This document shows positions 1,998-39,860 of a stretch of DNA of 39,860 bases, piece after piece (position 1 is the first letter of the stretch; each line of letters begins with the position of its first letter). Origin of the DNA: a virus. A program made the position numbers and the translations under genes. The stretch lies in the IMG/VR virus record IMGVR_UViG_3300045988_157278; one strand, given 5' to 3'. The notes beneath the pieces are model-generated. The model had not been told where the DNA came from. It saw nothing but the letters and a program-made list of their open reading frames with translations, and did no database searches.

Positions 1998-2036
1998 GTG
2001 CTTTTGTGCTAATATGAGGGTATAGAGGTGGTTTAT

Positions 2037-17150: not shown

Positions 17151-17423
17151 ATGGAAGAAGAAAAGAAAGTTATCCAGCCTGAAGGATCAGGAGTTGAACC
17201 GGCAACGATTGCTAGAACAGTCTGCCTGTTCATCGCACTTGTCAATCAACTTCTTGCTGTATGCGGAAAGGGCACCATTGGTATTGCTGACGATACAGTT
17301 TATCAGCTAGCGACAGCAGGCTTTACAATTACAGCTGCACTTATTTCATGGTGGAAGAATAATTCATTTACACGTGAAGCAAAGGCATCAGATAAAGTAA
17401 TGAAGCAGTTAAAAGGAAAATAG
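17151..17423 (+). CDS. holin, phiLC3/LL-H family-like
   Basis: TM segments and the family-typical WWKNNSFT motif. RBS AAAGGAGAAA. Confidence 0.65.
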   Translation: MEEEKKVIQPEGSGVEPATIARTVCLFIALVNQLLAVCGKGTIGIADDTVYQLATAGFTITAALISWWKNNSFTREAKASDKVMKQLKGK

Positions 17424-17722: not shown

Positions 17723-18403
17723 ATGACAGCAAAAGAATTTAAGAAGAGGGTCGAAGGTAAGGCCTATGATGTAGACGGCGCATTCGGCGCACAGTGCTGG
17801 GATCTATTCGCATATTTTTGTCAGCTGATGAAATATCCAATCTATAACTGCACAACGACTGGATATGTACCAGATCTGTGGAATGACCGTAAGAAGAATG
17901 GTATCCTGAAAAAGTTTGTGGAGACACAGAACATGCAGGAAGGAGACTGGTGTATCTGGGGTAAGTGCGCAGCTGCACCAGACGGACATATTGCGATGTA
18001 TCTGTCAGATAATGGAGACGGGACAGGTCAATTCCTTGGACAGAATCAGGGCAGCAATGTGGCAAATGTGATCACGATGCCGTATGCTGGGTCACTCGGG
18101 GCTTTGCGAGCAAATGATTACGTCAAAAAGCCGGCAAAAAAGACACCGGCACAGAAGGCTGGAATTGCTGCATCTGGAACGATGGTTGCTACCGTAGATC
18201 GTATCCGTGTGCGTAATAGCGCATCTCTCAGCAAAGGAGAGACCGGATTGTATTACGATAAGGGCATGGTGCTGAATTATGAATCCGTGAAAGAAGCGGA
18301 TGGATATTTCTGGCTGGTCTACACATCTGCAAGCACAGGAACGACACGTTACATCGCCTACGGAACCACCGATGGCAAGAAAAAATTCTGGAAGAAAAAG
18401 TAA
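17723..18403 (+). CDS. endolysin: CHAP peptidase plus SH3b-like cell-wall binding domain
   Basis: Catalytic Cys in GAQCWDL and His in DGHIAMY. C-terminal YFWLVYTSASTGTTRYIAYG is SH3b-like. RBS AGGAGGAAG. Confidence 0.8.
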   Translation: MTAKEFKKRVEGKAYDVDGAFGAQCWDLFAYFCQLMKYPIYNCTTTGYVPDLWNDRKKNGILKKFVETQNMQEGDWCIWGKCAAAPDGHIAMYLSDNGDGTGQFLGQNQGSNVANVITMPYAGSLGALRANDYVKKPAKKTPAQKAGIAASGTMVATVDRIRVRNSASLSKGETGLYYDKGMVLNYESVKEADGYFWLVYTSASTGTTRYIAYGTTDGKKKFWKKK

Positions 18404-20490: not shown

Positions 20491-21480
20491 ATGAGGAATA
20501 TCGTCAGTATATATTTTGCGGATACCAATCAGTACGGTTCATGCAACTCTGCAAGTGATGAGAATGAATTGATCCTATTTCTAATACCTCTACCATCACA
20601 GAAAACGAATCTGAGAGTGGAAGTAACTGACCGATCTGGAAACGTAACCACTAGCCCGGTCTTACAGCTAGAAGAAGGATATCTGAATTATAAGATAGAT
20701 AAAACCTTGTGGTATACAGCGGGAACGATGAAAGTGCGCTTGTTGAGTAATGAAGGAAATACTGGATATGTAGAGTTCAGAACACTTGTGACGATAACGG
20801 ATCAGGATGCAGCAATCTGCAAATTAGACGCATCATTCTTCAGCATCTCAAAACGTTCGGAGCAGGCCAGCGAAAGCTGGCCGATCGGTTCAGTTTTTGA
20901 AAGTATCCGCAATGTCAACCCAGCAGAATACTTCGGCGGTATATGGGAGCGTTTTGGGAAAGGGCGTGTCACGGTCGGCGTCGATGAGAATGATGCAGAT
21001 TTCGATACGGTGCAAAAGACTGGCGGGGAAAAGAAACACGCAACCACAGTGAACGAGATGCCAATACATACACATAGCCAGAAATCACATAATCACACTC
21101 AGAATGCTCATGGGCACAGTGCTTCGTCTGGGTCGGCAGGAAGCCATACTCACTCAGGGTCAACCGGGAGCGCAGGAAGCCATGCTCATACGATGTATAC
21201 GAGACAGAAAGTGCCAGGCGGTACAGGTGGTAAGTGGGCTACGATGGGATGGTCGAGTGATTATGACGGTACTTCTACTACTGCGGCACAAAGCGCAGGA
21301 AGCCATAGCCACAGCGTGACTATCAATTCAGGAGGAGCACACTCACATACAGTGAATGTAAGTAGTAATACCGCAAGTAATAACGCAACAACCGCAACGA
21401 ACAACAATGCTGGAGGAGGAGCTGCGCATAACAACCTGCAACCGTACATCACAGTATACAAGTGGGTGAGGACAGCGTAA
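20491..21480 (+). CDS. tail-collar-domain fibre protein with HxH repeat region
   Basis: Collar-domain pattern (GGIWERFGKGRVTVG...EMPIHTHSQ and C-terminal HNNLQPYITVYKWVR). About eight HxH motifs sit in GSAGSH(T/A)H-type repeats. Confidence 0.6.
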   Translation: MRNIVSIYFADTNQYGSCNSASDENELILFLIPLPSQKTNLRVEVTDRSGNVTTSPVLQLEEGYLNYKIDKTLWYTAGTMKVRLLSNEGNTGYVEFRTLVTITDQDAAICKLDASFFSISKRSEQASESWPIGSVFESIRNVNPAEYFGGIWERFGKGRVTVGVDENDADFDTVQKTGGEKKHATTVNEMPIHTHSQKSHNHTQNAHGHSASSGSAGSHTHSGSTGSAGSHAHTMYTRQKVPGGTGGKWATMGWSSDYDGTSTTAAQSAGSHSHSVTINSGGAHSHTVNVSSNTASNNATTATNNNAGGGAAHNNLQPYITVYKWVRTA

Positions 21481-22163
21481 TGTTTAAAAATAAGAAAGAA
21501 TTCTATAATTCAGATGAGTTTAATAGCTTGAAAGAATATCTAACCAATGAACGAAAGAATCCAGACGATGGGATGGTCTATTGTGAGCATTGCGGAAGAC
21601 CTATCGTTAAAAAGTATGATATGGTCGCGCACCATAAGAAGGAGCTTACAGACCAGAATATCAACGATTACATGATATCACTGAATCCGGAACTGATCGT
21701 GTTAGTACATTTTAAATGTCACAACGAGATACATCGCAGATTCGGAAAAGAAGGATATCGCAAGGCATATATCGTTTATGGTCCACCGTGCGGAGGTAAG
21801 ACAACATTCGTTCAAACCAATGCAGGACCGAATGATCTCATTGTCGATATGGACAGCATCTATCAGATGATAACCGTAAACGATAGATACATAAAGCCTG
21901 ACAGACTGAAGATGAATGCTTTCGCTGTACGTGATTGTTTGTATGAGCAGATCAAGTATCGGACAGGTAAATGGGAAAATGCATATGTGATTGCAGGATT
22001 ACCAATGGCAATGGAGCGTCAACGTCTTGAGACACGATTGAATGCATCTGGTATATTCATTGATGTTGACAAGGATACATGCAAAGCACGGGCACAAGAA
22101 CGTAGTAACGCAGAAGAAACTATAAAGTACATAGAGGAGTGGTTCTCCATGTATACGACTTAA
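21480..22163 (+). CDS. HNH endonuclease fused to a P-loop NTPase domain
   Basis: CEHCGRPIV...HH.KEL...HFKCHNEIH is HNH. Walker A YGPPCGGKTT. Located upstream of terS and terL, as in cos-type packaging modules. Confidence 0.7.
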   Translation: MFKNKKEFYNSDEFNSLKEYLTNERKNPDDGMVYCEHCGRPIVKKYDMVAHHKKELTDQNINDYMISLNPELIVLVHFKCHNEIHRRFGKEGYRKAYIVYGPPCGGKTTFVQTNAGPNDLIVDMDSIYQMITVNDRYIKPDRLKMNAFAVRDCLYEQIKYRTGKWENAYVIAGLPMAMERQRLETRLNASGIFIDVDKDTCKARAQERSNAEETIKYIEEWFSMYTT

Positions 22164-26392: not shown

Positions 26393-27034
26393 ATGGATGA
26401 ATTTGTAAGAAGAAGCTATATGTGTGAAGTCCGTTCGGAGGATGGCAATTCGGAGAACGAGCGTATCATCGTAGGACGGCCGATCGTATATGAAAGTAAA
26501 ACAGATATGGGATGGTATGACGAAGTGATATGCCGTGGCGCGCTGGATGAAACAGACCTTACGGATGTGAGCTTTTTAGTTAATCATATGACCGGTATGA
26601 TACCGATGGCCAGAAGTCGAAAAGACAATATAAACAGCACGATGCAGCTGAGCGTCGATGTCAACGGTATGGCGATCCGAGCTGGTGTGGATGTCGTAAA
26701 CAATGGGACTGCAAGAGAATTCTGTTCTGCTGTGGACAGGGGAGATATATGCGGCATGTCCTTCATGTTTGGTATTCGCAAACAGCGTTGGGATGATCTG
26801 GATTCTGAACATCCGACAAGGTACATCGAAAAGATATCTATCGTAATGGAAGTGTCAGGTGTGACATGGCCGGCTTATGAGGAAACAGATATATCTTTGC
26901 GGGATAAAGGAAACTGCGACGAAGCCCGACAGGCGTTTGAACACGCAAAAGAAGAACAGGCGCTGAGCAGGAAAGATACAGCCTGCGTGAATAAAGCGAA
27001 AGCACTGGTACGTATGTACAGGAAAGGAAAATAA
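26393..27034 (+). CDS. prohead protease (HK97 family, S78-like)
   Basis: RBS AAGGAGGTG. It sits between portal and capsid, with length and motifs typical of prohead proteases. Confidence 0.75.
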   Translation: MDEFVRRSYMCEVRSEDGNSENERIIVGRPIVYESKTDMGWYDEVICRGALDETDLTDVSFLVNHMTGMIPMARSRKDNINSTMQLSVDVNGMAIRAGVDVVNNGTAREFCSAVDRGDICGMSFMFGIRKQRWDDLDSEHPTRYIEKISIVMEVSGVTWPAYEETDISLRDKGNCDEARQAFEHAKEEQALSRKDTACVNKAKALVRMYRKGK

Positions 27035-27037
27035 GAT

Positions 27038-28339
27038 ATGAACATCAGAGAGTATTTGAACAATCTATTGAAAGACTTCAGAGAACAGAGAAGTACCCTT
27101 CGCACATCATTGGTTGCAGCCGAGACGCAGGAAGAGCGCCAGGCGATCAATGAAAGTCTGGATGCTGTGGAGGAGCAGATCGAATCCGTGAATGAACAGA
27201 TTCGGTCCCTGCCGCCTGTTGATGATGCAGGCGACGCAGGAAATGGAGAACAGCGAGGATTCAATCCACTGGCAAGCTATGGATTGAATGCAGGAGGTGC
27301 AGCTGCGGCTGCCGACGAGGAACGTGAAGCGGGTCCAACAGGAACTATGGAATATCGAAAGGCATTCCAGAAATATTTCCGTACAGGTGAGATGGATGAG
27401 GTTCTGATCACTCGTGCAAATGAAGCGAATACCAGTGAAGACCTGGGCGTCGTGATTCCGGTCACAGTCATGCAGACATTCATCACGGAAGTGGAGAAAG
27501 TCCGCGGACAGCTGTACACAAAAGTCAAGAAAACAAATGTCAAGGGCGGAATGAAATATCCGATCGGAGCATTTGGCGCAACCTTCAAACGAATCACAGA
27601 AGGTACGGTAAGCGATCGCCAAAAGGGTGGAAAGACTACCGGGCATGTCCAGTTCGGATATAACATCGGTGAGATCCGTATCGCAAAGACATTGCTGGAA
27701 AGTATCCTGGAGACTGCTGCATTTGAAACTGAACTGGGAAAAGTGATTGCGAAAGCATATGTAGAAGCGATGGATAAGGAGATCATCTCCGGAGTTCCGG
27801 CAAACAATGAAATGGAAGGGATCCTGACAGAAGCAAAAAAGGAAAGTGGAAGCCGCATCCTGCCAGCGAACATCATTGCGTTTACTGCAGACGATATCAG
27901 TGACTGGACAGCATGGGAAAAGAAAATGTTTGCAGTGATCCCTATGGCAATGGAAAAAGAACGTCCGGAATTCGTGATTGCGAAGCAGACATATGTCAGC
28001 AACCTCTGCACGATGAAGGATACATCCGGACAGCCAATCAAAAAAGCAGGATTTGACGCCAGCGACAAGTTGCACAAATTCAATGAATACGAAGTGAATC
28101 GTGTAGAAAAAGATATCTTCAAGGACTTTGACAGCTGCGAGGACGGGGATTACTTCGGTATGTTCTGGGTTCCGGAAATGGCTTATGCTATCAATTCCAA
28201 TATGGAGTTTACGCTGATGCGATATTTCGACCATGAAACGAATCAGTATGTCGATAAGGCGCTGGTCGTGAATGACGGCAAGGTATTGGATCCAGCATAT
28301 ATCTATTTGCTGAAAAAATCTGCCCCTGCGCAGGGATAG
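27038..28339 (+). CDS. major capsid protein (HK97 fold) with N-terminal coiled-coil delta/scaffold domain
   Basis: 433 aa with an N-terminal coiled coil followed by the capsid domain. Located directly after the protease. Confidence 0.85.
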   Translation: MNIREYLNNLLKDFREQRSTLRTSLVAAETQEERQAINESLDAVEEQIESVNEQIRSLPPVDDAGDAGNGEQRGFNPLASYGLNAGGAAAAADEEREAGPTGTMEYRKAFQKYFRTGEMDEVLITRANEANTSEDLGVVIPVTVMQTFITEVEKVRGQLYTKVKKTNVKGGMKYPIGAFGATFKRITEGTVSDRQKGGKTTGHVQFGYNIGEIRIAKTLLESILETAAFETELGKVIAKAYVEAMDKEIISGVPANNEMEGILTEAKKESGSRILPANIIAFTADDISDWTAWEKKMFAVIPMAMEKERPEFVIAKQTYVSNLCTMKDTSGQPIKKAGFDASDKLHKFNEYEVNRVEKDIFKDFDSCEDGDYFGMFWVPEMAYAINSNMEFTLMRYFDHETNQYVDKALVVNDGKVLDPAYIYLLKKSAPAQG

Positions 28340-28356
28340 GCAGGGGGTGACCATCC

Positions 28357-28641
28357 ATGGAGGATGCACTGATCCTTGAAAAAGTAAAGACAGCACTGGG
28401 CGTTACAGGTGCCTATCAGGATGGCACGATATCGTTCTATATCGATGAAACGAAGGCATACCTGAAGAGTGCCGGAATCGATCCGCGTGTGATCGATTCG
28501 CCGGCATCCTTCGGGGTGATCGCCCGCGGCGTTGCGGACCTGTGGAACTATGGCGCTGGATCCGGACGGCTGTCACCCTATTTTAAAGAGCGGGCAATGC
28601 AACTGAGTTTTGAAAAGAGTGATAACGATGTATCGACCTAA
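28357..28641 (+). CDS. head-tail connector (gp6-like)
   Basis: Size, position and pattern match a gp6-like connector. Confidence 0.55.
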   Translation: MEDALILEKVKTALGVTGAYQDGTISFYIDETKAYLKSAGIDPRVIDSPASFGVIARGVADLWNYGAGSGRLSPYFKERAMQLSFEKSDNDVST

Positions 28642-28987
28642 AGACCCGTTTACTGTACCTGTGTTATTGTTGCCGGTCTTAAAATGTGAAAATATCAAAG
28701 GAACTATCAAAAAGATATTCCTGGATCCTGCAGATGCTACGGATGATAAGCAGCTGCTTGTCAGCATGCGCACCTATGGGGGGACGGAAACAGTCGTGAA
28801 TGGAATCATGACGATCAACGATACAGCAATCGTGGAAACATGGTATCGGCCGGATATCAAAGCAGACTGCCGTATCTATGTGTGTGAGACACAGCGCACA
28901 TACGATATCGTATCGCCACCGGAAGATATCGATATGCGACACCAGTTTGTAAAATTCAAAATACGCTCATTAGGTGGCAAACCATGA
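28628..28987 (+). CDS. head closure / head-tail adaptor protein
   Basis: ATG at 28628 overlaps the previous gene. Position matches synteny. Confidence 0.5.
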   Translation: MYRPKDPFTVPVLLLPVLKCENIKGTIKKIFLDPADATDDKQLLVSMRTYGGTETVVNGIMTINDTAIVETWYRPDIKADCRIYVCETQRTYDIVSPPEDIDMRHQFVKFKIRSLGGKP

Positions 28988-29397
28988 GCAACAAGATCAG
29001 TATGGAGTTTGATGGTTTTGAACTACTGGAAGATGAGTTTGATGCAATACTGGCGGATCTAGGCGAAATGGTGAGTGAAGGATTAAAAGAAGCACATGGA
29101 ATCATTACGAGGAAAGCAGAGCCGGCAATCAGAAAACATCACTTGACTGGTGAAACAGAAGATTCGCTGATTGCAAATCCGACCGTTTCATGGAGTGGCT
29201 TGAGCGCATCTACAAAGGTCGGTTTCCGCATCCGTGACGGAGGTTTGCCATCCATCTTTCTGATGTACGGGACACCTAGGATGAACAAGGATCAGGAGCT
29301 ATATGATGCCTTCCATGGCGCTTCTACATCCGAGAGCATCGAAAGAGCGCAGAAAAATATCATAGAAAAATTCATGTCATTCAAGAAAGGGCGGTAG
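28984..29397 (+). CDS. HK97 gp10-like tail-component protein
   Basis: ATGA overlap with the previous gene. Size and position match. Confidence 0.55.
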   Translation: MSNKISMEFDGFELLEDEFDAILADLGEMVSEGLKEAHGIITRKAEPAIRKHHLTGETEDSLIANPTVSWSGLSASTKVGFRIRDGGLPSIFLMYGTPRMNKDQELYDAFHGASTSESIERAQKNIIEKFMSFKKGR

Positions 29398-29401
29398 ATG
29401 C

Positions 29402-29782
29402 ATGCAGGAGCGAATAATAAAGCTATTGAATGCTTTTGGATACCCGATCTACAGACAAGGATCGATGAGTTCGACACAAGAATATCCACAGGCATTCTTC
29501 ACAACATGGAACAACGATACACGGGAAGAAGCATTCTATGGAGGAGAAGCAAGACGTAGAGTATGGGATTACGATATAAATTTCTATGCATCTGATCCCG
29601 AACTGGTAGATAAGATACCAGAGGAAGCTATTGCTAGAATGAAAAGGGAAGGATTCATCATCGATCGCGCGGGATACGATGTGATGAGCGACGAACAAAC
29701 ACATACAGGCAGAGGGATACACATCCTCTGCATCGATGATATGAAGAAAGAAAGAGAGGATGAGCTTAATGGCAACATTTGA
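29402..29782 (+). CDS. tail completion / terminator-like protein
   Basis: Position matches synteny. Confidence 0.45.
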   Translation: MQERIIKLLNAFGYPIYRQGSMSSTQEYPQAFFTTWNNDTREEAFYGGEARRRVWDYDINFYASDPELVDKIPEEAIARMKREGFIIDRAGYDVMSDEQTHTGRGIHILCIDDMKKEREDELNGNI

Positions 29783-30389
29783 AGAATTCCGAAATTGCAG
29801 GAATGCATGTATTGCATTGGTAACAAGTGACACGATTGAAGCATATGAAACAGGACAGGTCATGCCATTGGCGCCGCTTGCTGAGATTTCGAAGACAACA
29901 GCAACAGCAAGTGAAGCAAAATACTATGATGGATCACCACTTATCGTTGTAAATGCTGAAGGAGCCGACACAGTAACTTTGACAACCACGGTCATTCCGC
30001 TCAAGACGCTGGCAATGATCACGGGAAAAAAAGTAGATGCAAAAACCGGAGCATTGATGGATGGCCCTGCAAAACCGGTGTATTTTGCACTGGGTTACAT
30101 CCTTGAAAAGACGGATGGAACGAATCGTTACGTATGGCGTTATAAATGCTCTGCGAGCATTCCGGACGAGAGTGGGAAGACGGCGACTGCAGGTACAGAA
30201 ACTTCAAATCAGCAGATCACGATCACTGGTATCAATACCATTCATAAATTCACAAAGCCGCAAGCTTCACAAAAAGCACTCGTCGTAGATGAATCCGATG
30301 GACTGGCAGACCTGACTACATTCTTCAATGAAGTAACGACATGCGACACTTTGAGACCGCTGAATTCAGATGTATCGTCTGAAGGGTAA
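29769..30389 (+). CDS. major tail protein
   Basis: About 200 aa and T/S/G-rich, directly upstream of the chaperone pair. An alternative ATG is at 29760. Confidence 0.7.
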   Translation: MATFEEFRNCRNACIALVTSDTIEAYETGQVMPLAPLAEISKTTATASEAKYYDGSPLIVVNAEGADTVTLTTTVIPLKTLAMITGKKVDAKTGALMDGPAKPVYFALGYILEKTDGTNRYVWRYKCSASIPDESGKTATAGTETSNQQITITGINTIHKFTKPQASQKALVVDESDGLADLTTFFNEVTTCDTLRPLNSDVSSEG

Positions 30390-30401
30390 TGAGGTGATTA
30401 T

Positions 30402-30728
30402 ATGTTACTGAACATCTGGAAAGACCAGACGACGATCGAAAAGACAGTGCAGGCAGATGCTTATGATATCATGCTGGGAACGGTAGACGATATCCTTGCT
30501 TTACTTGACGATGTATTGAAATTAGATGAGGAAGGTGACTTCAACGGCCTTCTCCTGGAGCTTATCAGGAATAATCTTCCGCGGGTAAAACATTTGTTGA
30601 AAGAGATATTTCCATCATTGAAAGATGAAGATTTAAAAAGAATCAAGATGAAGGAACTCGTCCCATTGTTTGTGGAATTGGTCATGTACTGCAAAGAATC
30701 GATGGAGTATGACGGAAAAAACGTGTAG
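30402..30728 (+). CDS. tail assembly chaperone (gpG-like)
   Basis: Acidic 108-aa protein between the major tail protein and the tape measure protein. It ends with the slippery heptamer A_AAA_AAC. Confidence 0.65.
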   Translation: MLLNIWKDQTTIEKTVQADAYDIMLGTVDDILALLDDVLKLDEEGDFNGLLLELIRNNLPRVKHLLKEIFPSLKDEDLKRIKMKELVPLFVELVMYCKESMEYDGKNV

Positions 30729-30756
30729 AGGGTGAGGGTGGCAGCACTCTCACCCT
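30716..30756 (+). promoter_or_regulatory. programmed -1 ribosomal frameshift signal: A_AAA_AAC plus stimulatory hairpin AGGGTGAG/CTCACCCT
   Basis: X_XXY_YYZ heptamer in the gpG frame, an 8-bp stem with a 12-nt loop, and an open -1 frame downstream. Confidence 0.5.
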
Positions 30757-30961
30757 TTATCAAGTGATGTTTCGTATGCAAGATATGCTGTGCACCAGGT
30801 ATACCGGAATGAACCCGCTCATGCTGCGCAAAGAACGCAGTGGAGAAGTGTTCAAGTTGGTGAAACGCATCCTGGACAGCATTGAAGTTAATGAAGAAGA
30901 GATACAAAATAATAACAACCGTGTCATACGCCGAAAAGCAACAGATGACAGCTGGTATTAG
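30722..30961 (+). CDS. gpT-like C-terminal extension reached by -1 frameshift from gpG (GT fusion product)
   Basis: The -1 frame is open from 30713. The slippery site at 30716-30722 is followed 6 nt later by an 8-bp hairpin. Confidence 0.5.
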   Translation, partial: RVEGEGGSTLTLYQVMFRMQDMLCTRYTGMNPLMLRKERSGEVFKLVKRILDSIEVNEEEIQNNNNRVIRRKATDDSWY

Positions 30962-30975
30962 AGGGAGGTGCAGAT

Positions 30976-33900
30976 ATGGCTAGAAATACAGAAGCGACGA
31001 TGAAATATAGAGCGGACATAAGTGAATTGAAATCGAGTATACAGTCCGCCAATCGTGAAATCAAGTTGGCAAACGCTCAGTTCAAAGCTGGAACAGTCGG
31101 CATGAAGGATTGGTCATCATCCGCGGATGGTCTGAGTGCAAAGCAAAAGCAGTTGACAAGCGTTATCGCCGCTCAGAAGCAGAAACTGACTGACCTCGAA
31201 AAACAATACGCTCTCGTTTGTGAAAACCAGGGAGAAAATTCTAAAATGGCGCAGGATCTCGCTGTGAAGATCGAAAAGCAGAAATCAACAGTCATTGCCA
31301 GTGAACAGGCAATGGAAAGATACAATAAAAAACTGATCGATGCAAAAAACAGTGGAAAAATCACAGCTGAAGAGTTTGAACGCCTGGCTTCCGCACAATC
31401 AAAAGAAGCAGCTGAATCATTGAAGGCGGCACAAAAGGCTGAGCATACGACGAAGAAGCTGACAGAATTAAAAGAGGTATCTGCAGAACTAACAACACGA
31501 ATCGGTAAGGGGTTGGTCACAGCTTTAAAAGCAGGAGCTGCAGCTATGGGGGCGATGATCGCAACATCTACGAAAGTCGGTGTGGAATTCGAAGCAGGGA
31601 TGAGTGAAGTGCAAGGCATCAGTAGGGCAAGTGCAGAAGATATGGAGTTATTGAGTGCAAAAGCTAAAGAGATGGGAGCGAAAACAAAGTTTTCTGCATC
31701 TGAAGCAGCAGAAGCATTCAAATATATGGCGATGGCCGGATGGAAGACACAAGATATGCTGGTGGGGATCGAAGGTATCATGCAGCTTGCGGCTGCTTCC
31801 GGAGAAGACCTGGCAACTGTATCCGATATCGTAACAGATGGACTGACGGCATTCGGACTGAGCGCCAAAGATTCTGGGCATTTTGCAGATGTCCTCGCTG
31901 CCGCATCCTCAAACGCTAATACGAACGTATCCATGATGGGAGAATCTTTCAAGGAAGCAGCTGCCTTATCAGGCACCATGAAATACAGCATAGATGATAT
32001 GTCGGTGGCGATCGGTCTGATGGCAAACAGTGGTATCAAAGGATCCAAAGCCGGAACGACACTGAAGAACGCGATTGCGAATATGGCGAAGCCGACCGAT
32101 GCTATGCGAGAATTGATGGATAAGTATAATCTTTCCCTTTCAAACGCAGATGGAACGATGAAGCCGTTTGCTACTGTTGTAGAAGATCTGCGAAAAGCAT
32201 TCGGTGGATTGACTAAAGATCAGCAGGCTAGCGCAGCAGCAACACTATTCGGAAAAGAAAGTATGGCCGGTATGCTGTCTGTCATCAATGCAAGTGAGAG
32301 TGATTACAATAAGCTGAAAACAGCAATCAAGAACGCAGATGGAGCATCCAAGGAAATGGCGGATACGATGCAGAACAATGTAAAAGGATCTGCAACGATA
32401 CTGAAATCCACCCTTGAAGGTTTAGGAATACAAATGTACGATGTTTTTAAGGATGATCTTAAAAAGGGAATCGATTCTGTTACGAAAGAGTTTAGCAAGT
32501 TGTCAAGAGAACTCAGTAAGCCGAATATAAAAAATGCGCTGGCTAGTGTTGTAAAAGGATTGTCATCTTTCTTACAGGCTGGTTTAAAGGTCATTACGTC
32601 ACTTATCCCGCCGTTGATAGAGGGATTTGCTTTTATGGCAACGAATGCAGACAAGTTGATTCCACTCATTACAGGGCTGGCAGGTGCATTTATCGTCTAC
32701 CAGACTAAGACAGCTATCGCAACAAAAGCAACCGGTGAATTGAATGCGATACAACTTGTAGCGAAGGCTGGATCTGTCGCTTACAACACGGTGATGGGGA
32801 TACTGAACGGGACGATGGATATCCAGATCGTTAAGACTAAAGCATTGAACCTGCTTCATTCAGCAAGTCCATGGGGATTGGTAGCACTTGCGATTGGCGG
32901 TGTCGTTGCGGCGTTATTGGCTTTTAACAACCAAGAAGACGAAGCAACAAAAAAGCTGAGAGAAAACGCAGACGAAGCTAAGGAGAATCGTGAAGCATGG
33001 GATGAGATGAACGAAGCTAAACAGATGGCGATGCAGGACGGTGCAGCTGAAATTGACTACTACATGCGCCTGAAAGAGGAAATGTCATCACTCGTGGATG
33101 CGAATGGTAAAGTAAAAAAAGGTTACGAAGGCCGTGTAAAATTTATCGTAGGTGAATTGAATGATGCATTAGGAACAGAGATATCCATGACCGGTAACGT
33201 TATTGACAACTATAAGGAACAGATGAAGGCATTAGATGACCTTATGGCAAAACAACGTGCGAAAACGATCATTGATGCTGGTGCAGAAGCATACTCCACA
33301 GCAATCAAAAATCAGACGAAGGCATTGCAAGAACAGAAGGATGCTGAAAAAGAAGTCATGGACCAGAAAGCGAAGCTGCAAAAAAGTGTTGAAAAGCTCA
33401 TGGAAGAAGGTCTAACGAACGAACAGGCTTGGTACGCTATCAGGGCAGGTGCCGCAGGAGAAGATCTCGTTCTGGCAGAAGAAACCTATGCGGAAAAGAA
33501 ACGCCTTGCGGAAGGTTATACAGAGACGATTGCGGAACAGGAGATGCTGCAGAAACTATATGCACAAGGAAACGCTGAAGACATCGCGGCTATCAATGCA
33601 TATATATCGAGGTCGTACGATGATAAAGGTAAAAAGGTCGTATTATCAACGCAGGAACAGGTAACCAACGAAGAAACACTGCTGTCTTATCTGAAACAGA
33701 GATATAAGGATACCGGGGATCAGATGTATCAGGATCAGATAAAAGCAAGCGAGAATCGACTGAAAAATCTGAAGGAAGATGTGAAGAACCAAAAATCTAC
33801 TGTCGAGGAAGGGACCGGAGGATTCCGAACTGCATGGGAGAATATGACTAAGCAGGGTAACAGCGGATTTGAGAAAGGTTCTGACAATTATAAGGTAGCA

Positions 33901-34530
33901 GCTTTAAACCAGGTCATGATGGCTAAGCTGGGTATCACAAAAAACACGAAGGAGACGACAGGAGCATGGGAATTCCTGGCAGCGCAGGGACTGGCTGCTT
34001 ATGATGATAAAGCAAAGCAATGGAGATTTACCGAAGCCGGAGAATTGTATGCGTTGGGGGCAAAAGCGGGAATTCAAAATAAGCAAGGTGATGTGTGGGG
34101 GGCTGTTAGCGGCATGGCTAGCGGCATGGTAACAGCCATGTTCCAGGCACTGGATATCCATTCACCTTCCAGAAAAGCATATAAAGGCGGAGATTATTTT
34201 GGTTTAGGACTTGTCAATGCCTTACGTGACCGCATTCCGTCTATAAAAAAAGTAATCAGTGAAATAACTGCCGTGATGCTTGACGGTACAAGTGCTATAG
34301 CTCCGCAACTTAATGACAATATGAGTATAGCTGTATCAGGTATGCAGAAAAGTGCTGCCTCCAGAACGCAGACGCCACAGACGCCGCAGCAATCTCAGGG
34401 AACCACAGGATCGCAAACGACATTCAATCAGTACAATTATAGCCCGAAAGCATTATCACAGAGAGAAATCTATCGTAATACGAATAGAGCGCTTCGTTTT
34501 AAAGATATGATCGGAGGTATCAGAAGATGA
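30976..34530 (+). CDS. tail tape measure protein
   Basis: 1184 aa, coiled-coil rich, with a conserved TMP core (AFKYMAMAGWKTQDM...). Confidence 0.9.
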   Translation: MARNTEATMKYRADISELKSSIQSANREIKLANAQFKAGTVGMKDWSSSADGLSAKQKQLTSVIAAQKQKLTDLEKQYALVCENQGENSKMAQDLAVKIEKQKSTVIASEQAMERYNKKLIDAKNSGKITAEEFERLASAQSKEAAESLKAAQKAEHTTKKLTELKEVSAELTTRIGKGLVTALKAGAAAMGAMIATSTKVGVEFEAGMSEVQGISRASAEDMELLSAKAKEMGAKTKFSASEAAEAFKYMAMAGWKTQDMLVGIEGIMQLAAASGEDLATVSDIVTDGLTAFGLSAKDSGHFADVLAAASSNANTNVSMMGESFKEAAALSGTMKYSIDDMSVAIGLMANSGIKGSKAGTTLKNAIANMAKPTDAMRELMDKYNLSLSNADGTMKPFATVVEDLRKAFGGLTKDQQASAAATLFGKESMAGMLSVINASESDYNKLKTAIKNADGASKEMADTMQNNVKGSATILKSTLEGLGIQMYDVFKDDLKKGIDSVTKEFSKLSRELSKPNIKNALASVVKGLSSFLQAGLKVITSLIPPLIEGFAFMATNADKLIPLITGLAGAFIVYQTKTAIATKATGELNAIQLVAKAGSVAYNTVMGILNGTMDIQIVKTKALNLLHSASPWGLVALAIGGVVAALLAFNNQEDEATKKLRENADEAKENREAWDEMNEAKQMAMQDGAAEIDYYMRLKEEMSSLVDANGKVKKGYEGRVKFIVGELNDALGTEISMTGNVIDNYKEQMKALDDLMAKQRAKTIIDAGAEAYSTAIKNQTKALQEQKDAEKEVMDQKAKLQKSVEKLMEEGLTNEQAWYAIRAGAAGEDLVLAEETYAEKKRLAEGYTETIAEQEMLQKLYAQGNAEDIAAINAYISRSYDDKGKKVVLSTQEQVTNEETLLSYLKQRYKDTGDQMYQDQIKASENRLKNLKEDVKNQKSTVEEGTGGFRTAWENMTKQGNSGFEKGSDNYKVAALNQVMMAKLGITKNTKETTGAWEFLAAQGLAAYDDKAKQWRFTEAGELYALGAKAGIQNKQGDVWGAVSGMASGMVTAMFQALDIHSPSRKAYKGGDYFGLGLVNALRDRIPSIKKVISEITAVMLDGTSAIAPQLNDNMSIAVSGMQKSAASRTQTPQTPQQSQGTTGSQTTFNQYNYSPKALSQREIYRNTNRALRFKDMIGGIRR

Positions 34531-35381
34531 GTTTTGCATTATATATCGAAAATCAAAAGCAGGAAGTGCTGGACTTGACAAATGATGCCTCCTATACTGT
34601 GGTGCAGGTCGATGGCCTAGATCCACCAGATGCGCAGATCAGCACGACGAAGCGTATCGGTTATGATGGAGAGGATATTCAATCGGTCTACGTAGAACCG
34701 CGTACCATAACGATCTATATCGTGATGTATGGTGATGTCGAAGAAGCGCGCCTACGTTTATATCAATATGCACGTATCAAGCAGTATCTGAAAGTCCGCT
34801 ATCGTAATGCACACCGTGATGTGGTGGCGGAAGGAACTGTGCAAGGGATACAGTATGATCATTTTGCACAGATACCAATGATGCAGATCGTCGTGTACTG
34901 TCAGTATCCATATCTCCGAAACATCGACACGATAACAGACGGAGGATCGCAGATACAACCTGCATTCGGATTTGTTTTTTCTTGTGAAAACGGGAATACG
35001 TTTGAATTCGGGACATTTCTGGAAATTCCTGAGATCGTTGCGTTGAATAGTGGTGAAGTGGTAACCGGGATACGATTCATTTTCCGGATGAATGGTATCG
35101 TGAAAAATCCAAAGATATTCAATCGGGCAACAGGTCAATTCATAGCATTGGAATATGATTTTCAAGCCGGAGATGTCGTTACGCTATCCACTCATTTTGG
35201 AGATAAATATGCACAACTGCTACGAAATGCGCAAACGATAAATATATTTAATGCGATTACGAAAGATAGCACATGGATGCAGATGGATGTCGGTGATAAT
35301 GTATTTGTTTTTGAAGCTGCACAAGGACAGGACATGATCGAATTATCCATCATACATACGGATGAGTATGAGGGGGTATAA
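34527..35381 (+). CDS. distal tail protein (Dit)
   Basis: ATGA overlap with the tape measure protein. Size is typical. Confidence 0.7.
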   Translation: MSFALYIENQKQEVLDLTNDASYTVVQVDGLDPPDAQISTTKRIGYDGEDIQSVYVEPRTITIYIVMYGDVEEARLRLYQYARIKQYLKVRYRNAHRDVVAEGTVQGIQYDHFAQIPMMQIVVYCQYPYLRNIDTITDGGSQIQPAFGFVFSCENGNTFEFGTFLEIPEIVALNSGEVVTGIRFIFRMNGIVKNPKIFNRATGQFIALEYDFQAGDVVTLSTHFGDKYAQLLRNAQTINIFNAITKDSTWMQMDVGDNVFVFEAAQGQDMIELSIIHTDEYEGV

Positions 35382-35383
35382 AT

Positions 35384-36415
35384 ATGCAGCTGATAATATG
35401 TGACCGCGAATTTCAAAGGTTAGGAATGATCGAAACAGCATCCGTTATATGGATGAGCAGATATTATGATCTTGGAGATTTTGAGATATTAGTTGCGATG
35501 GATCAGAAACGTTATGAACTGCTGCACAAAGACTATTATGTTTTACGGTATGACGATCCCTATGTAGGGATTATTGAAGATATCAATATTACAGATGATG
35601 GCGAGACTGAGTATCTGAAGGTGACCGGTCGCTTTGCGGAATCTCTCCTCACGCGAAGGATCGTGTATAATCAAACACAGGTCAGCGGAACAGTAGAAAA
35701 TGGCCTGATTGCGCTGATAAAAGACAACATCACTGATCCTAAGATCAGTGCAAGAAAGATAGACATCATCGGCATCTCACCTTTAAAAGGCTTTCATGAA
35801 AAATTGAATGCGCAGTATACGGGTGATGAGATTGCGGAGGTTGTTACCGCCGTATGTCAGGCAAATGGGCTGGGATATCGGATGCCGTTGATAGATGATA
35901 GATTTATGTTTGAAATATACAAAGGGACGGATCGATCATATGCTCAGGACGAAAATCCGCACATAGTATTTTCTGATAAGAATGATAATCTTATATCAAG
36001 CACGTATACAGAAGTAAATTCCAAGCATAAGAATTTTGCGCTTGTGGCCGGAGAAGGAGAAGGTGCACAGCGCCGCAAGCTCCCGGTTGGGACATTGGAA
36101 GGCATAGACCGTAAAGAAACATTTGTAGATGCCAGAGATATATCGTCGAACGAAGGAGAAGTCTCGGATATAGAATATGACAAGGCATTGATGGAACGCG
36201 GATATGAAAAACTGTCAGAGACCGCCATGACACAGGCATTTGACGGAGAGGTCAGTATGAACGTGAACTATCAGTATCGCAAAGATTATCAGCTGGGTGA
36301 TATCGTCACGATCGAGAATGAAAGATGGGGAATATCAATAAATTCCCGTATTATCGAAGTGATGGAATCAGAAGATGAAAACGGATATATAGTAACACCA
36401 ACATTTGGAGCATGA
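35384..36415 (+). CDS. tail-associated protein (Tal / gp27-like baseplate hub N-domain)
   Basis: The N-terminus resembles the prophage-tail family. Position is after Dit. Confidence 0.6.
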   Translation: MQLIICDREFQRLGMIETASVIWMSRYYDLGDFEILVAMDQKRYELLHKDYYVLRYDDPYVGIIEDINITDDGETEYLKVTGRFAESLLTRRIVYNQTQVSGTVENGLIALIKDNITDPKISARKIDIIGISPLKGFHEKLNAQYTGDEIAEVVTAVCQANGLGYRMPLIDDRFMFEIYKGTDRSYAQDENPHIVFSDKNDNLISSTYTEVNSKHKNFALVAGEGEGAQRRKLPVGTLEGIDRKETFVDARDISSNEGEVSDIEYDKALMERGYEKLSETAMTQAFDGEVSMNVNYQYRKDYQLGDIVTIENERWGISINSRIIEVMESEDENGYIVTPTFGA

Positions 36416-36428
36416 GGAGGTATAAGGC

Positions 36429-37604
36429 ATGTCGATAAAATATGGATTTTTCAATAGTGTTAACAAGGATAGACAATATGACGCAAATGATTTTAACTAT
36501 GGTTTGCGTAAGTTGATATCAAATGGCGTCTTTGCTGAACCGGGGAATAATCTGCAGGTGATGGCCGGAAGCGGTATGAACATCGTAATCAAAAAGGGAG
36601 AAGCGAGACTGGATTGGAAGTGGTTCATATCGGATGCCGATGAAATATTAACGATTGCAGCATCCGATGTTTCACTGAATCGTATCGACCGCATTGTTAT
36701 CCGTCTGGACTTTACGGCACGGACGATAAACTTCGCAATAAAGAAAGGCGCAGGAGCAACGAACCCGACTGCTCCGGACATCGAAAGGACTTCATCGGTA
36801 TTTGAATTAGGGTTAGCACTGATCAACATACCAAAGCAGACAACGACGATCACCCAGTCACTCATCACAGATACCAGAATGGATGCAGGTGTATGTGGTG
36901 TCGTTACCGGATTGATTGACCAAGTAGATACCACAACGCTATTTAACCAATACCAGACAGCTTTTCAGGAAGACCGCACCTTTAATAATGCAGCTTTCAA
37001 TACATGGTTCTCTGGAATAAAAGAGCAGATGTCTACCTCAACGCTCATCCGTAAGTTTACGAATATCATGACCAGTACAGCCGGACAAAAAGTATTCAAC
37101 ATCGGCATAGTGGGCTATAACACTACTTTGGATATCTTGGAGGTATATATCAATGGATTGCGGACAGCTGAGACAATAGACTACACGCATGATGCTACGC
37201 AGATAACCTTGACAAAAGCACTGGATGCTGGACAGCAGCTGGAAGTCGTGGTATGGAAATCAATCGATGGTGCGAATGCAATCACTGTTATAGAAGAGGT
37301 TGAGCAGCTGCAGAATGAAAAGTTGGATAAAACTGGCGGAGAAGTAACAGGAAATATAACACTTGATACAGGTACAAGAATGATGGTAAAAGATAAAAAT
37401 AATACAGGACTTAATGGCTTGTCTTTATTAGATGACAGACTTCTTTTAGGAAATAGCATGTATAAAACAGCCATAGGTTCTAAAAATGTACCGATATGGG
37501 ATAGTGGGACTACTGCAAAAAACCTTGCTACTGAAGAATATGTAAACGCAAAGATTAAAGAATTGCAGGATCAGATCGACGCATTGAAAGGCGCAGGACA
37601 ATGA
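36429..37604 (+). CDS. receptor-binding / tail fibre protein (BppU-like N-terminus)
   Basis: N-terminus MSIKYGFFNSV...YDANDFN typical of upper-baseplate/fibre proteins. C-terminal coiled coil. Last gene of the tail operon. Confidence 0.55.
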   Translation: MSIKYGFFNSVNKDRQYDANDFNYGLRKLISNGVFAEPGNNLQVMAGSGMNIVIKKGEARLDWKWFISDADEILTIAASDVSLNRIDRIVIRLDFTARTINFAIKKGAGATNPTAPDIERTSSVFELGLALINIPKQTTTITQSLITDTRMDAGVCGVVTGLIDQVDTTTLFNQYQTAFQEDRTFNNAAFNTWFSGIKEQMSTSTLIRKFTNIMTSTAGQKVFNIGIVGYNTTLDILEVYINGLRTAETIDYTHDATQITLTKALDAGQQLEVVVWKSIDGANAITVIEEVEQLQNEKLDKTGGEVTGNITLDTGTRMMVKDKNNTGLNGLSLLDDRLLLGNSMYKTAIGSKNVPIWDSGTTAKNLATEEYVNAKIKELQDQIDALKGAGQ

Positions 37605-37613
37605 AATGAAGAT

Positions 37614-37651
37614 AACGCCCTATCTTAATAGCAAAGTGGGGCGTTTTTTTA
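37614..37651 (+). terminator. intrinsic terminator AACGCCC...GGGCGTT plus T7
   Basis: 7-bp GC-rich stem followed by TTTTTTT at the end of the structural operon. Confidence 0.55.
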
Positions 37652-37672
37652 TATTAGAATTAGTGTTATAAT
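37640..37672 (+). promoter_or_regulatory. extended -10 promoter TGTTATAAT
   Basis: TGnTATAAT at 37664-37672. It lies upstream of the basic-protein gene, after the structural terminator. Confidence 0.35.
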
Positions 37673-37695
37673 GATGATACAAAGAGGTGAGGATT

Positions 37696-37896
37696 GTGAA
37701 AATAGGAATCAGAAAACCATCTATAAAAAAATCAATAAAAGCAAGAACGACAGGAGCAGTGAAAAGAAAGGCTAAAGCTGCCGTTAATCCAATATACGGA
37801 AAGCCTGGTGTCGGATTTGCGAAAGACCCAGTAAGATCGACTAAAAACAAAGTATATAAAAAGACAACCAAAAGTGTATGGGATTTTTTTAAATAA
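37696..37896 (+). CDS. lysine-rich, very basic small protein (about 67 aa)
   Basis: K/R-rich sequence (KPSIKKSIKARTTGAVKRKAKAAVNPIYGKPG...). RBS AAAGAGGTGAGG. Confidence 0.45.
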   Translation: MKIGIRKPSIKKSIKARTTGAVKRKAKAAVNPIYGKPGVGFAKDPVRSTKNKVYKKTTKSVWDFFK

Positions 37897-37904
37897 AAAT
37901 AATT

Positions 37905-38591
37905 ATGAAAATTAAATATGATTTAACAGGCGAACGGTTTGGCAGATTATATGTCACAAAGTTAGATGGAAAAAATAAAAGTAATGAATATCTATGGTTG
38001 TGTAAATGTGACTGCGGACAACTTTGTCATGCAACAACATATGCGCTGCGGCATGGTATCAAGCGCAGCTGTGGATGCATCACGCGGGAACGTACCAGCA
38101 AACAGCTGGAGGGAGAACGATTTGGGAAGCTAACTGTCCTAAAGAGGTTGGACAAGAAAAAGCATGATTGCTATATGTGGCTTTGTAAATGTGATTGTGG
38201 AAACACATGTGAAGTAAGGACAGATGCCTTAACAAGAGGAGTAACAAAAAGCTGTGGCTGCATGCATATAACATCGTTGGATGATAAGCGCAGCAAGCTG
38301 TATGTAAAGGATACTGGCTTACAATATGTCGGTGATTATAATAAGCCAAGAAAAAGCAAAACAGGCTTTACAGGAGTAGTATACGATAAACGCAGGGCAG
38401 GTAATAAATATTATGCAAAAGTAAAATTTCAGGGGAAATATTACTATCTTGGGAGTGCAGCAACTGCAGAAGAAGCCTATGAATTATACAAATCAGGTAA
38501 AGAAAAAATACACAAGAAGTTTCTCGCGGAAAATCCTGAATATCTGCAAAGAGTTGAGGAATTGAGAAAAAAAGCGTCTAAAAAAAGATAA
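37905..38591 (+). CDS. AP2-domain DNA-binding protein with two N-terminal GERFG(R/K)L...WLCKCDCG...SCGC repeats
   Basis: AP2 signature GFTGVVYDKRRAGNKYYAKVKFQGKYYYLGSAATAEEAYELY. The N-terminal Cys motif is duplicated and is shared with the 1-847 gene. Confidence 0.6.
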   Translation: MKIKYDLTGERFGRLYVTKLDGKNKSNEYLWLCKCDCGQLCHATTYALRHGIKRSCGCITRERTSKQLEGERFGKLTVLKRLDKKKHDCYMWLCKCDCGNTCEVRTDALTRGVTKSCGCMHITSLDDKRSKLYVKDTGLQYVGDYNKPRKSKTGFTGVVYDKRRAGNKYYAKVKFQGKYYYLGSAATAEEAYELYKSGKEKIHKKFLAENPEYLQRVEELRKKASKKR

Positions 38592-38622
38592 ACCCTGTCT
38601 CTATTCAGGTAAGGCAGGGTTT
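38590..38622. terminator. bidirectional terminator hairpin AAACCCTG/CAGGGTTT between convergent genes
   Basis: 8-bp stem with A/T runs on both sides. It lies between the stop codons at 38591 (plus) and 38626 (minus). Confidence 0.5.
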
Positions 38623-38625
38623 AGA

Positions 38626-39860
38626 TTATTTCTTTTTACTTCTTTTATATATTGGGCGCCATAGGTCTTCACCTCTATCGCCGTTCGAATATCGATAAAG
38701 CAATGTACCGTATGAAATATTAGTAATTTTTGATAGTTCATTTAAAGTTACTATTTTGCCTTGATAATCGATTTCCATTTCGCTTTGAAGATTTCTCCAA
38801 AGCTCTTTTCCACGATCGCCATTTCTATAACGTCTATGTAAAGTGGTATAACCAATTCCGGTTCTATTTGATAATTCTGTAAGATTTATTTTTTCACCTT
38901 CATAATCCACTAAAATTTCTTTTCCCATAGATTTTTGAAAGAGTTGTGAACCGCTCGCGCCTTTAGAATAACGCTTCCATAAAGTAACATAATCAATTCC
39001 AGTTTTTTTTGATAATTCATATAAAGACACTTTTTCACCATCATACTCGACATATATTTTCGCTTTTTTGCTTATTTTTCTTTTATATTGCTTTATCTTC
39101 CCTGTCCATAATTCTTCACCTCGATATCCCTTATCGTAACGATATCTTAATGTAGTGTCATTTATACCTGTTATACTTGATAATTCTGGTATTGTTACCT
39201 GTTTACCATCATACTCGACATAAATATTTGCCTTATTCGGTAATCGTTCAGCACTCCATAATTCTTCACCTTGGCATCCATTATAATAACGTTGTTTCAA
39301 TGTACCTTCATTTATTCCGGTCAAAGTAGATAGCTCAGCAAAGGTTACTTGTTTACCATGATAATCAATATATATTTTGGCAGATCTTTTATTCGGTAAT
39401 CGCTTTGTACTCCATAATTCTTCGCCTCGATATCCTTTATGATAACGATTTTTCAATGTACCTTCATTTATTCCGGTCAAAGTAGATAACTCTGCAAAGG
39501 TTACTTGTTTACCATGATAATCAATATATATTTTGGCAGATCTTTTATTTGGTAATCGCTTTGTACTCCATAAGTCTTCGCCTTGATAACCGATTTTATA
39601 ACGCATGCTTAATGCAGATCGGTTTATTCCAGTTAAAGCAGATAACTCAGTAAAGGTTACTTCTCTACCATAATAATCGACACGGGTCGTCCCCTTACCT
39701 GTTAATCGTTTAGTGCTCCATAATTCTTCGCCTTGATATCCTCTATAATAACGATTTTTCAATTTAGTTTCGCTTATCCCTGTTAAAGTAGATAGCTCAG
39801 CAAAAGTTACTTGTTTACCATGATAATCAATATATATTTTGGCAGATCTTTTATTCGGTA
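38626..39860 (-). CDS. tandem NUMOD1-like HTH repeat protein, C-terminal part. The 5' end runs off the window. Probably the same gene as 1-847.
   Basis: About eight repeats of roughly 52 aa (...YHGKQVTFAELSTLTGINEGTLKNRYHKGYRGEELWSTKRLPNK...). The track start at 39762 is a TTG, and the frame stays open to the window end. Confidence 0.6.
   Translation of the reverse strand, partial: PNKRSAKIYIDYHGKQVTFAELSTLTGISETKLKNRYYRGYQGEELWSTKRLTGKGTTRVDYYGREVTFTELSALTGINRSALSMRYKIGYQGEDLWSTKRLPNKRSAKIYIDYHGKQVTFAELSTLTGINEGTLKNRYHKGYRGEELWSTKRLPNKRSAKIYIDYHGKQVTFAELSTLTGINEGTLKQRYYNGCQGEELWSAERLPNKANIYVEYDGKQVTIPELSSITGINDTTLRYRYDKGYRGEELWTGKIKQYKRKISKKAKIYVEYDGEKVSLYELSKKTGIDYVTLWKRYSKGASGSQLFQKSMGKEILVDYEGEKINLTELSNRTGIGYTTLHRRYRNGDRGKELWRNLQSEMEIDYQGKIVTLNELSKITNISYGTLLYRYSNGDRGEDLWRPIYKRSKKK

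Follow-up and report, generated by a model that had tools for sequence, protein, structure and literature searches.

Cys-rich, AP2 and helix-turn-helix (HTH) modules are shuffled DNA-binding parts of the homing-endonuclease world, and a virus that encodes two proteins built of such modules, neither of them with a catalytic domain, raises the question of what these proteins do. We addressed this question for the IMG/VR record IMGVR_UViG_3300045988_157278, a stretch of 39,860 nucleotides (nt) referred to here as the window. Its accessory island begins at position 37,696, runs to the last position and continues across the window ends into the first positions; it encodes a short protein of 228 amino acids (aa) and a long protein of 681 aa. 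We interpret the island as an anti-defence (anti-CRISPR, acr) locus of a temperate siphophage of [Clostridium] innocuum (phylum Bacillota), in which both proteins belong to the CasPR family and likely act as roadblock repressors of host cas genes, and we assign to this interpretation a probability of roughly 0.6.

CasPRs are phage DNA-binding anti-CRISPRs that were characterised experimentally in a preprint of February 2026 (bioRxiv 10.64898/2026.02.23.707548). They are defined by a CapR domain combined with an AP2 domain and by five universally conserved Cys residues (C33, C35, C37, C56 and C58), and they are abundant in acr loci of Bacillota prophages (10.64898/2026.02.23.707548). As proteins they are monomeric, devoid of a nuclease and sequence-specific in their binding to DNA, and they descend from DNA-binding modules of homing endonucleases. 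Their binding site, about 30 bp long, is located within cas8b or cas9; bound there during lysogeny, they bring RNA polymerase to a halt and silence these host CRISPR genes (10.64898/2026.02.23.707548). CasPRIB1 consists of one CapR and one AP2 domain, while CasPRIB2 consists of two CapR domains, AP2 and four HTH domains, and the specificities reported so far are of types I-B and II-A only (10.64898/2026.02.23.707548).

As a stand-in for CasPRIB1 we used a 166-aa protein of Listeria phage LP-LmcIH1-8 (not QDA75636.1 itself), which possesses C33/35/37/56/58 as well as R138/R149 exactly as reported for CasPRIB1, and whose operon is flanked by the endolysin gene on one side and the integrase gene on the other. 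The long protein aligns with it over residues 7-161 (34% identity, 93% coverage, 75.5 bits, pairwise E 1e-20) and the short protein over residues 8-164 (29% identity, 95% coverage, 59.3 bits, pairwise E 6e-16). CasPR homologues have been delimited by a BLASTp E-value of <= 1e-4 and a query coverage of >= 70% (10.64898/2026.02.23.707548); by our own estimate, at the size of the nr database the long protein would pass this rule and the short one would be borderline. Both window proteins carry the CasPR Cys signature with an AP2 domain downstream of it, and both are encoded in the setting described for CasPRs, i.e. in an acr locus of a prophage from Bacillota. An earlier note on the window, made from its sequence, had regarded this arrangement as uncharacterised, a view that by the note's own terms would fall with homology to a family of known function. 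CapR plus AP2, with or without HTH domains, is the defining architecture of the CasPRs, and this part of the note has to be given up.

Domain architecture of the two proteins

The short protein is encoded on the plus strand by an open reading frame at 37905-38591 and is identical to WP_118003170.1. It comprises two CapR-type Cys domains (aa 6-58 and 67-119), a disordered linker (aa 125-151) and an AP2 domain (aa ~152-210). The motif G-x-R-F-G-x-L-x-V...W-x-C-x-C-D-C-G...S-C-G-C is present in two copies. In the first, the residues W31, C33, C35, D36, C37, G38, S55, C56 and C58 are invariant across the alignment of the short protein family (A1, 26 relatives); the second contributes C94, C96, C98, C117 and C119. 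The AP2 domain was picked up by PHROG profiles, by comparison of the family profile with AP2 chains in the PDB, and by structure only: Pfam AP2 does not match the short protein as a single sequence, although it does match 14 of the 26 relatives. The family profile matched the AP2 domains of WRI1 (E 3e-6), TEM1 and ERF096 in the PDB. In the AlphaFold2 model (predicted local distance difference test score 81) the disordered linker is followed by a C-terminal three-stranded sheet and helix, and this domain superposes on the AP2 domain of Arabidopsis TEM1 (Foldseek probability 1.0, root mean square deviation 1.5 Å). The alignment, the profile comparison and the structural superposition bear out the earlier description of the short gene as one with a duplicated Cys motif and an AP2 domain.

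The long gene lies on the minus strand and is indeed wrapped across the window ends, running from 847 to 1 and then from 39824 to 38626. Its N-terminal part (1-847, with the start codon at 847-845) encodes a CapR-type domain (aa 8-60, bases 668-826), an AP2 domain (aa 97-150, bases 398-559) followed by a helical linker, and HTH repeats 1-2 (bases 29-322), all on the minus strand; the C-terminal part (38626-39860, minus strand, of which 39825-39860 duplicate 1-36) encodes HTH repeats 3-10. The Cys motif, previously taken to be duplicated in this protein as well, occurs only once (aa 33-60), and its residues C35, C37, C39, C58 and C60 are invariant in the alignment of the long protein family (A3). 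With the N-terminal fragment as the only query, the Pfam AP2 score is 34.4 bits (cut-off 33.3). The short and long proteins are paralogues, as had been suspected (34% identity, E 9e-24).

The reconstruction of the long protein depends on how the window ends are joined. The window behaves as a circular phage contig whose last 36 nt (39825-39860) are identical to its first 36 nt (1-36); the same 36-mer is also present at 39363 and 39519, within an array of 156-nt tandem repeats (39105-39860). Because the ends share this duplication, joining them plainly yields a product of 693 aa in which the 12-aa segment LPNKRSAKIYID is doubled, and removal of the duplicate restores 681 aa. The contig break point sits inside the 156-nt tandem repeat that encodes the HTH array, and therefore the repeat copy number in any short-read assembly has to be treated with caution. 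The 681-aa product is uninterrupted in an independent 40.8-kb metagenomic contig (L009) and in an integrated prophage of an isolate (L010, GCA_003603195.1), both identical to the window, and is on record as MCR0621150.1 (P0121) under the NCBI name 'AP2 domain-containing protein [[Clostridium] innocuum]'. We also found versions of 629 aa, shorter by exactly one 52-aa repeat, in contigs that otherwise match and in the NCBI record of an isolate. A megablast search of INPHARED phages with the island gave no match, and among cultured phages none covers more than 41% of the long protein.

The repeats of the long protein, put at about ten in the earlier note, number exactly ten (46-56 aa each, aa 176-678), and each consists of a beta-hairpin and a helix-turn-helix. 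They had been labelled NUMOD1, and this label could not be upheld: single repeats do not match Pfam NUMOD1 (PF07453) at E <= 10, and they match generic HTH models weakly, the best being Sigma70_r4_2 (E 0.006). A distant relative of the HTH repeat, P0180, carries GIY-YIG and NUMOD1 domains. The AlphaFold2 model of the whole long protein has the appearance of beads on a string (predicted template modelling score 0.23), and its comparison with the PDB by Foldseek was uninformative, the weak meaningful matches being AP2 domains only. In C. innocuum, orthologues of the long protein possess 5, 6, 7, 8, 9 or 10 HTH repeats, the array of the window phage being the largest of its family. Conservation is seen in the first repeat and in the last four, and the expansions occur in the middle; within the repeats the scaffold positions are invariant and the positions of the recognition helix are hypervariable, with the start of the helix the most variable of all. 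As an accessory DNA-binding module, the array may extend or anchor the footprint of the protein, or it may add a second target or autoregulation. We regard with considerable doubt a more far-reaching variant of this idea, according to which the modular, copy-number-variable array reads DNA and directs the long CasPR to a further target that is long or reiterated, with gain and loss of repeats retuning its specificity in an arms race; this target might be a repeated element, such as the leader or array of a CRISPR locus, or comprise more than one defence locus.

No nuclease family was detected in either protein by Pfam, NCBIfam or PADLOC, none appeared among the Foldseek or PDB profile results, and the AlphaFold2 models of the short and long proteins leave no unassigned folded segment. 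The PHROG families labelled 'HNH endonuclease' are matched in the CapR and AP2 (DNA-binding) parts of their profiles only. NCBIfam and PADLOC gave nothing informative, the PADLOC 'mad1' match being summed HTH similarity only. The claim that both proteins lack a catalytic domain has in this way withstood Pfam, PHROG, PDB profile and structure-based checks.

The constituent modules have a much wider distribution. The Cys repeat is found in more than 6,300 clusters at 90% identity, with 1 to 6 or more copies in each protein; what follows it is most frequently AP2, and in some proteins an HNH, HNH_3 or DUF2726-like endonuclease domain. The HTH repeat has 2,491 representatives (E <= 1e-3) in arrays of 2 to 13 units, which sometimes make up the whole protein (e.g. 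P0201, with 13), and one protein (P0198) combines two Cys domains, AP2 and five HTH repeats. Nuclease-bearing homologues, for which a search had been suggested in the earlier note, are present among these relatives, with HNH, HNH_3, DUF2726-type or GIY-YIG domains. Free-standing homing endonucleases of the HNH, GIY-YIG and PD-(D/E)xK types (e.g. P0103, P0111, P0119, P0037 and P0180) resemble the window proteins in their Cys-repeat arrays, and some of them possess the same kind of C-terminal HTH or AP2 domains, but they carry a catalytic domain and the window proteins do not.

Operon, promoter and position at the prophage end

Comparison with 12 related loci (L001-L012) supports the existence of the three-gene minus-strand operon that had been proposed for the window. 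In every related locus it comprises a 61-aa acidic gene, a 123-aa Xre-type HTH gene and the long CasPR gene. The first gene (1285-1470, minus strand) encodes an AcrIC5-like acidic protein of 61 aa (isoelectric point, pI, 4.05), a candidate anti-CRISPR. Pfam AcrIC5 is matched by all 15 of the 15 members of the 61-aa family (best E 6.9e-11). A PDB sequence search with the 61-aa protein alone gave no AcrIC5 match, and the family profile matched the AcrIC5 structure 7yhr_A weakly (E 0.12). The second gene (859-1230, minus strand), located between the 61-aa gene and the long gene in all related loci, encodes a 123-aa Xre-type HTH protein resembling the anti-CRISPR-associated (Aca) regulators; it scores 23.5 bits with Pfam HTH_3 (cut-off 23) and matches phrog_25567 (E 8.5e-52). 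This protein is likely the autorepressor of the operon, in a regulatory role like that of Aca proteins.

The promoter and operators of the operon occupy 1515-1567 on the minus strand. The promoter (TTGACA-17-TATAAT, 1543-1515) agrees with the sigma-70 consensus at 12 of 12 positions. A palindrome, ATAGCGCACAaTGTGCGCTAT (1518-1538; perfect, 10+10), lies between the -35 and -10 elements, and a second copy of GCACAATGTGC is found 31 bp upstream (1554-1564). The pair, with its 31-bp spacing, is kept in 10 of the 12 related loci (L001-L005 and L008-L012), while L006 and L007 keep one copy. A search of the phage for further exact copies of the operator palindrome found none beyond the two at the operon promoter. 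Such a layout is typical of Aca-controlled acr promoters, and, judged by its sequence, the locus appears to combine the features by which acr-aca loci are recognised, i.e. a homologue of an Acr protein, an HTH gene following it, and a strong promoter with inverted repeats.

The genes of the locus are under purifying selection. In pairwise comparisons of the window genes with their orthologues, the ratio of nonsynonymous to synonymous substitution rates (dN/dS) was 0.08 for the short protein, 0.13-0.25 for the CapR and AP2 part of the long protein, 0.33-0.39 for its HTH array, 0.17-0.24 for the AcrIC5-like gene and 0.12-0.21 for the Aca-like gene.

The position of the locus within the prophage could be read from the integrated copy. 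The isolate genome GCA_003603195.1 (L010) is 100% identical to window positions 26429-39860 and 1-1920, after which host genes follow. Because the identity to the integrated copy stops at 1920, the phage attachment site (attP) lies between the operon promoter region and int, and we place its boundary at 1900-1925, just upstream of int. The island accordingly occupies an accessory slot next to attP and int, as the earlier note had it, and in lysogens the acr-like cassette is the last element before host DNA. In the related loci the slot downstream of the long gene is occupied either by the short CasPR gene or by hicAB.

A segment of about 170 bp upstream of the operon (window 1585-1754) recurs at 87-89% identity on the downstream side of the long gene, immediately ahead of hicAB (L005, 11477-11648; L008, 6601-6771). 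This copy is present in prophages with hicAB in place of the short CasPR gene, and the duplicated segment may be a portable promoter or recombination module.

Proposed mechanism and alternative explanations

The long protein resembles CasPRIB2 (AcrIB12, from a Listeria seeligeri prophage) in that both have an N-terminal CapR-type region, a central AP2 domain and a C-terminal HTH array, lack a nuclease and are encoded in a prophage acr operon in Bacillota. CasPRIB2 has two CapR and four HTH domains as opposed to one and ten in the long protein; its target is cas8b of type I-B, and the host of the window phage is a different one. The likeness is one of domain architecture as described in the preprint. 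The short protein resembles CasPRIB1 (AcrIB14) and CasPRIIA1 in possessing CapR and AP2 domains only, with the same five Cys residues at identical positions, and shares with CasPRIIA1 the presence of two CapR domains; its gene is convergent to the acr operon and not inside it. A further counterpart is PLE CapR (Netter et al. 2021, PMC8096241), with which the CapR domain was first described: phage satellites of Vibrio cholerae have domesticated the DNA-binding domain of a homing endonuclease and use it to repress the capsid genes of phages. Like the window proteins, PLE CapR is a nuclease-free, Cys-dependent domain derived from homing endonucleases, and it serves as a repressor in a conflict between mobile elements. 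Its motif is CxxC...CxC, it lacks an AP2 domain, and this satellite-encoded protein binds to a promoter region, whereas the window proteins have a CxCxC...CxC motif and an AP2 domain and are encoded by a phage.

At the level of gene order, an AcrIC5 homologue is paired with an AP2 gene in Cryptobacterium curtum, and gp27 of phiCDHM13 is the AP2 anchor that was used to find the C. difficile acr locus (PMC7913775, PMC10732046). We found that phiCDHM13 gp27 is a direct tblastn match of the short protein (35% identity). The acr-aca, C. curtum and phiCDHM13 loci share with the window a small acidic Acr-like first gene, an HTH regulator, an AP2 gene and a strong promoter with inverted repeats, as well as the location in an accessory slot between late (lysis/tail) genes and attP. 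Unlike the C. curtum and phiCDHM13 loci, that of the window would, as far as its sequence tells, bring together AcrIC5-like, Aca-like and CasPR-like genes and add a second CasPR paralogue. What is new here is modest: the architecture itself was already known, and the novelty lies in the host, the probable type I-C context, the presence of two paralogues in one locus and the HTH array of 5-10 copies.

By analogy with the characterised CasPRs, AP2 and the CapR-type domain or domains, of which the latter would coordinate zinc, would together recognise some 30 bp of DNA, and this site would most likely be located within a cas gene of the host. The AcrIC5-like neighbour makes the type I-C cas genes a reasonable guess for the target. 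The bound protein would act as a roadblock to elongating RNA polymerase and would lower the levels of Cas proteins while the phage is a prophage. As the operon's third gene, the long gene would be driven by the strong promoter, which the 123-aa protein probably autorepresses via the two palindromes, and the short paralogue would be transcribed convergently, as a unit of its own after the tail-gene terminator.

Several points weigh against assigning the two proteins to the CasPRs and a cas target to them. The AcrIC5-like copy of the window scores 25.0 bits, 2 below the Pfam cut-off of 27. Pfam CapR (PF21817) matches neither the window proteins nor any of the 26 relatives of the short protein at E up to 10; we base the CapR label on the Cys signature, on the HHpred call made in the preprint, and on a relative with the same motif (P0093) that scores 24.2 bits, equal to the CapR cut-off. 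The AP2 residues R138 and R149 are needed for CasPRIB1 activity and are conserved among Listeria homologues only (10.64898/2026.02.23.707548); at the aligned positions the long protein has E/Y and the short one S/Y. Both arginines are replaced in both window proteins, and therefore a different DNA specificity is to be expected, not an exclusion from the CasPR family. Nor is activity assured by homology: one of the eight CasPR homologues tested inhibited neither system (10.64898/2026.02.23.707548). Earlier tests of AP2 genes from acr loci of Listeria and C. difficile revealed no Acr activity, and the CasPR preprint is not yet peer reviewed. Finally, a literature search for the CRISPR type of C. 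innocuum gave nothing usable.

The replacement of the arginines important in Listeria, which implies that the specificity must differ, also bears on the alternative that the same roadblock mechanism is directed at a target other than CRISPR-Cas, in counter-defence or superinfection exclusion. Such a target is raised in the discussion of the CasPR preprint (10.64898/2026.02.23.707548), PLE CapR provides a case of a domesticated domain that acts on phage capsid genes, and the Abi_alpha gene of the prophage shows investment in inter-phage conflict. We nevertheless consider a target outside CRISPR-Cas unlikely: for each of the nine CasPRs whose target is known, that target is a cas gene (10.64898/2026.02.23.707548), and the AcrIC5-like first gene of the operon points to CRISPR as the adversary. 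The proteins might also regulate the phage's own genes, as Aca-like autoregulators or lysogeny modulators with no direct anti-defence activity, given that AP2 genes in acr loci were earlier proposed to encode Aca proteins, that some relatives are named 'transcriptional regulator' by NCBI, and that the extra HTH domains of CasPRs have been suggested to be autoregulatory (10.64898/2026.02.23.707548). However, the operon already includes a dedicated Xre-type HTH protein; its promoter has two short palindromes only, which fit a dimeric HTH repressor and are nothing like the target of a ten-unit array, and there is no further exact copy of the palindrome in the phage. Moreover, CapR and AP2 are directly required for Acr activity in the characterised CasPRs (10.64898/2026.02.23.707548), and on balance we judge a purely self-regulatory role to be rather improbable.

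Decay is the remaining alternative, in which the genes are remnants of homing endonucleases that have lost the nuclease and have no current function. It finds a basis in the relatives in which the same Cys-repeat, AP2 and HTH modules are fused to HNH, HNH_3, DUF2726-type or GIY-YIG domains, and in the 'HNH endonuclease' label of the matching PHROG families, the matches being restricted, however, to the DNA-binding parts of these profiles. Decaying genes would hardly be expected to remain intact in dozens of independent assemblies, with a fixed position and operon structure and with dN/dS values of 0.08-0.39, and we regard this explanation as highly improbable. Among the three options offered in the earlier note, that of a degenerate homing element was rejected on the grounds of purifying selection and conservation, and that of an anti-defence module is favoured by the match to CasPRs.

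If the two proteins do act as CasPRs against host cas genes, transcriptional silencing of immunity of the CasPR type extends to prophages of a species that is both a common commensal of the human gut and an opportunist, possibly including a CasPR directed at type I-C, beyond the known I-B and II-A. The orthologues with 5-10 HTH repeats would then constitute a natural allele series, usable to test the role of the accessory HTH domains. It would also follow that the labels 'HNH endonuclease', 'AP2 domain-containing protein' and 'hypothetical protein', attached to thousands of proteins with Cys repeats and AP2, hide a nuclease-free class of regulators.

Neighbouring genes and other features of the phage

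The convergent short and long genes are separated by a hairpin at 38589-38625 that has U-rich tracts on both sides and folds stably on either strand (-19.6 kcal/mol, z -3.6, on the plus strand; -15.6 kcal/mol, z -3.3, on the minus strand). It is probably a bidirectional intrinsic terminator, in agreement with what had been proposed for this junction. Upstream of the short gene, the plus strand encodes a lysine-rich protein of 66 aa (37696-37896, pI ~11), which is real and conserved in C. innocuum prophages: its exact sequence is on record as WP_118003169.1, and gene calls in independent contigs also give 66 aa. It matches PHROG families 10934, 3374, 29766 and 4721, all of unknown function, and has no match in Pfam, NCBIfam or PADLOC; we found no evidence that links it to the function of the CasPRs.

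Two further elements were read from the sequence upstream of the lysine-rich gene. A hairpin resembling an intrinsic terminator (AACGCCC...GGGCGTT, then a T run; 37614-37650, plus strand), which is absent from the list of the consensus scan, may close the tail-gene transcript. A possible extended -10 promoter, TGtTATAAT (37664-37672, plus strand), could serve the lysine-rich gene and the short CasPR gene. The gene at 36429-37604 plausibly has a receptor-binding role, to judge from its position after Dit and Sipho_Gp37.

On the other side of attP, an exact look-up of the window integrase gave no record. The integrase has 447 aa in the window (2028-3371), as opposed to 466 aa with a SHOCT domain in L009 (15432-16832), L011 and L012, despite identical tail, CasPR and acr regions, which suggests modular exchange of the lysogeny module at attP. 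The mapping of the lysogeny genes of L009 onto the window was dropped, given that its integrase differs and that the shared region extends from the tail genes to the acr operon only. Between attP (~1920) and the start of int there is a perfect tandem direct repeat, CAACCCGAAAA x2 (1958-1979), which overlaps an inverted repeat and may be an arm-type or regulatory site.

The early and lysogeny region contains a Pistol ribozyme (Rfam RF02679) at 4029-4092 on the plus strand, full-length and with a score of 55.7 bits (gathering score 34.5). Within the rightward early transcript it closely follows a 74-aa open reading frame (3799-4023) and precedes a 59-aa one (4273-4452), both of which are divergent from an Xre-type repressor-like gene ending at 3714. 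In the same region the minus strand encodes the member of the Abi_alpha (abortive infection) family mentioned above (4884-5654; Pfam 73.7 bits). A second tyrosine recombinase (13243-14094, plus strand, 283 aa, Pfam Phage_integrase) is encoded in the early region, far from attP, and is preceded by a Lar_restr_allev gene in a related phage.

The lysis cassette of the window is located mid-genome (17097-22163), upstream of the terminase and not after the tail genes. This stretch encodes an SPP1-type holin (17097-17423), an endolysin with CHAP and SH3_5 domains (17723-18403), a Y_Y_Y-domain protein (19105-20475), a Gp10_C baseplate/fibre-like protein (20491-21480) and a protein with HNH and AAA_33 domains (21462-22163). 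In the related prophages L001 and L005 the position of the holin and amidase is the customary one, with the tail genes on one side and the acr locus on the other.

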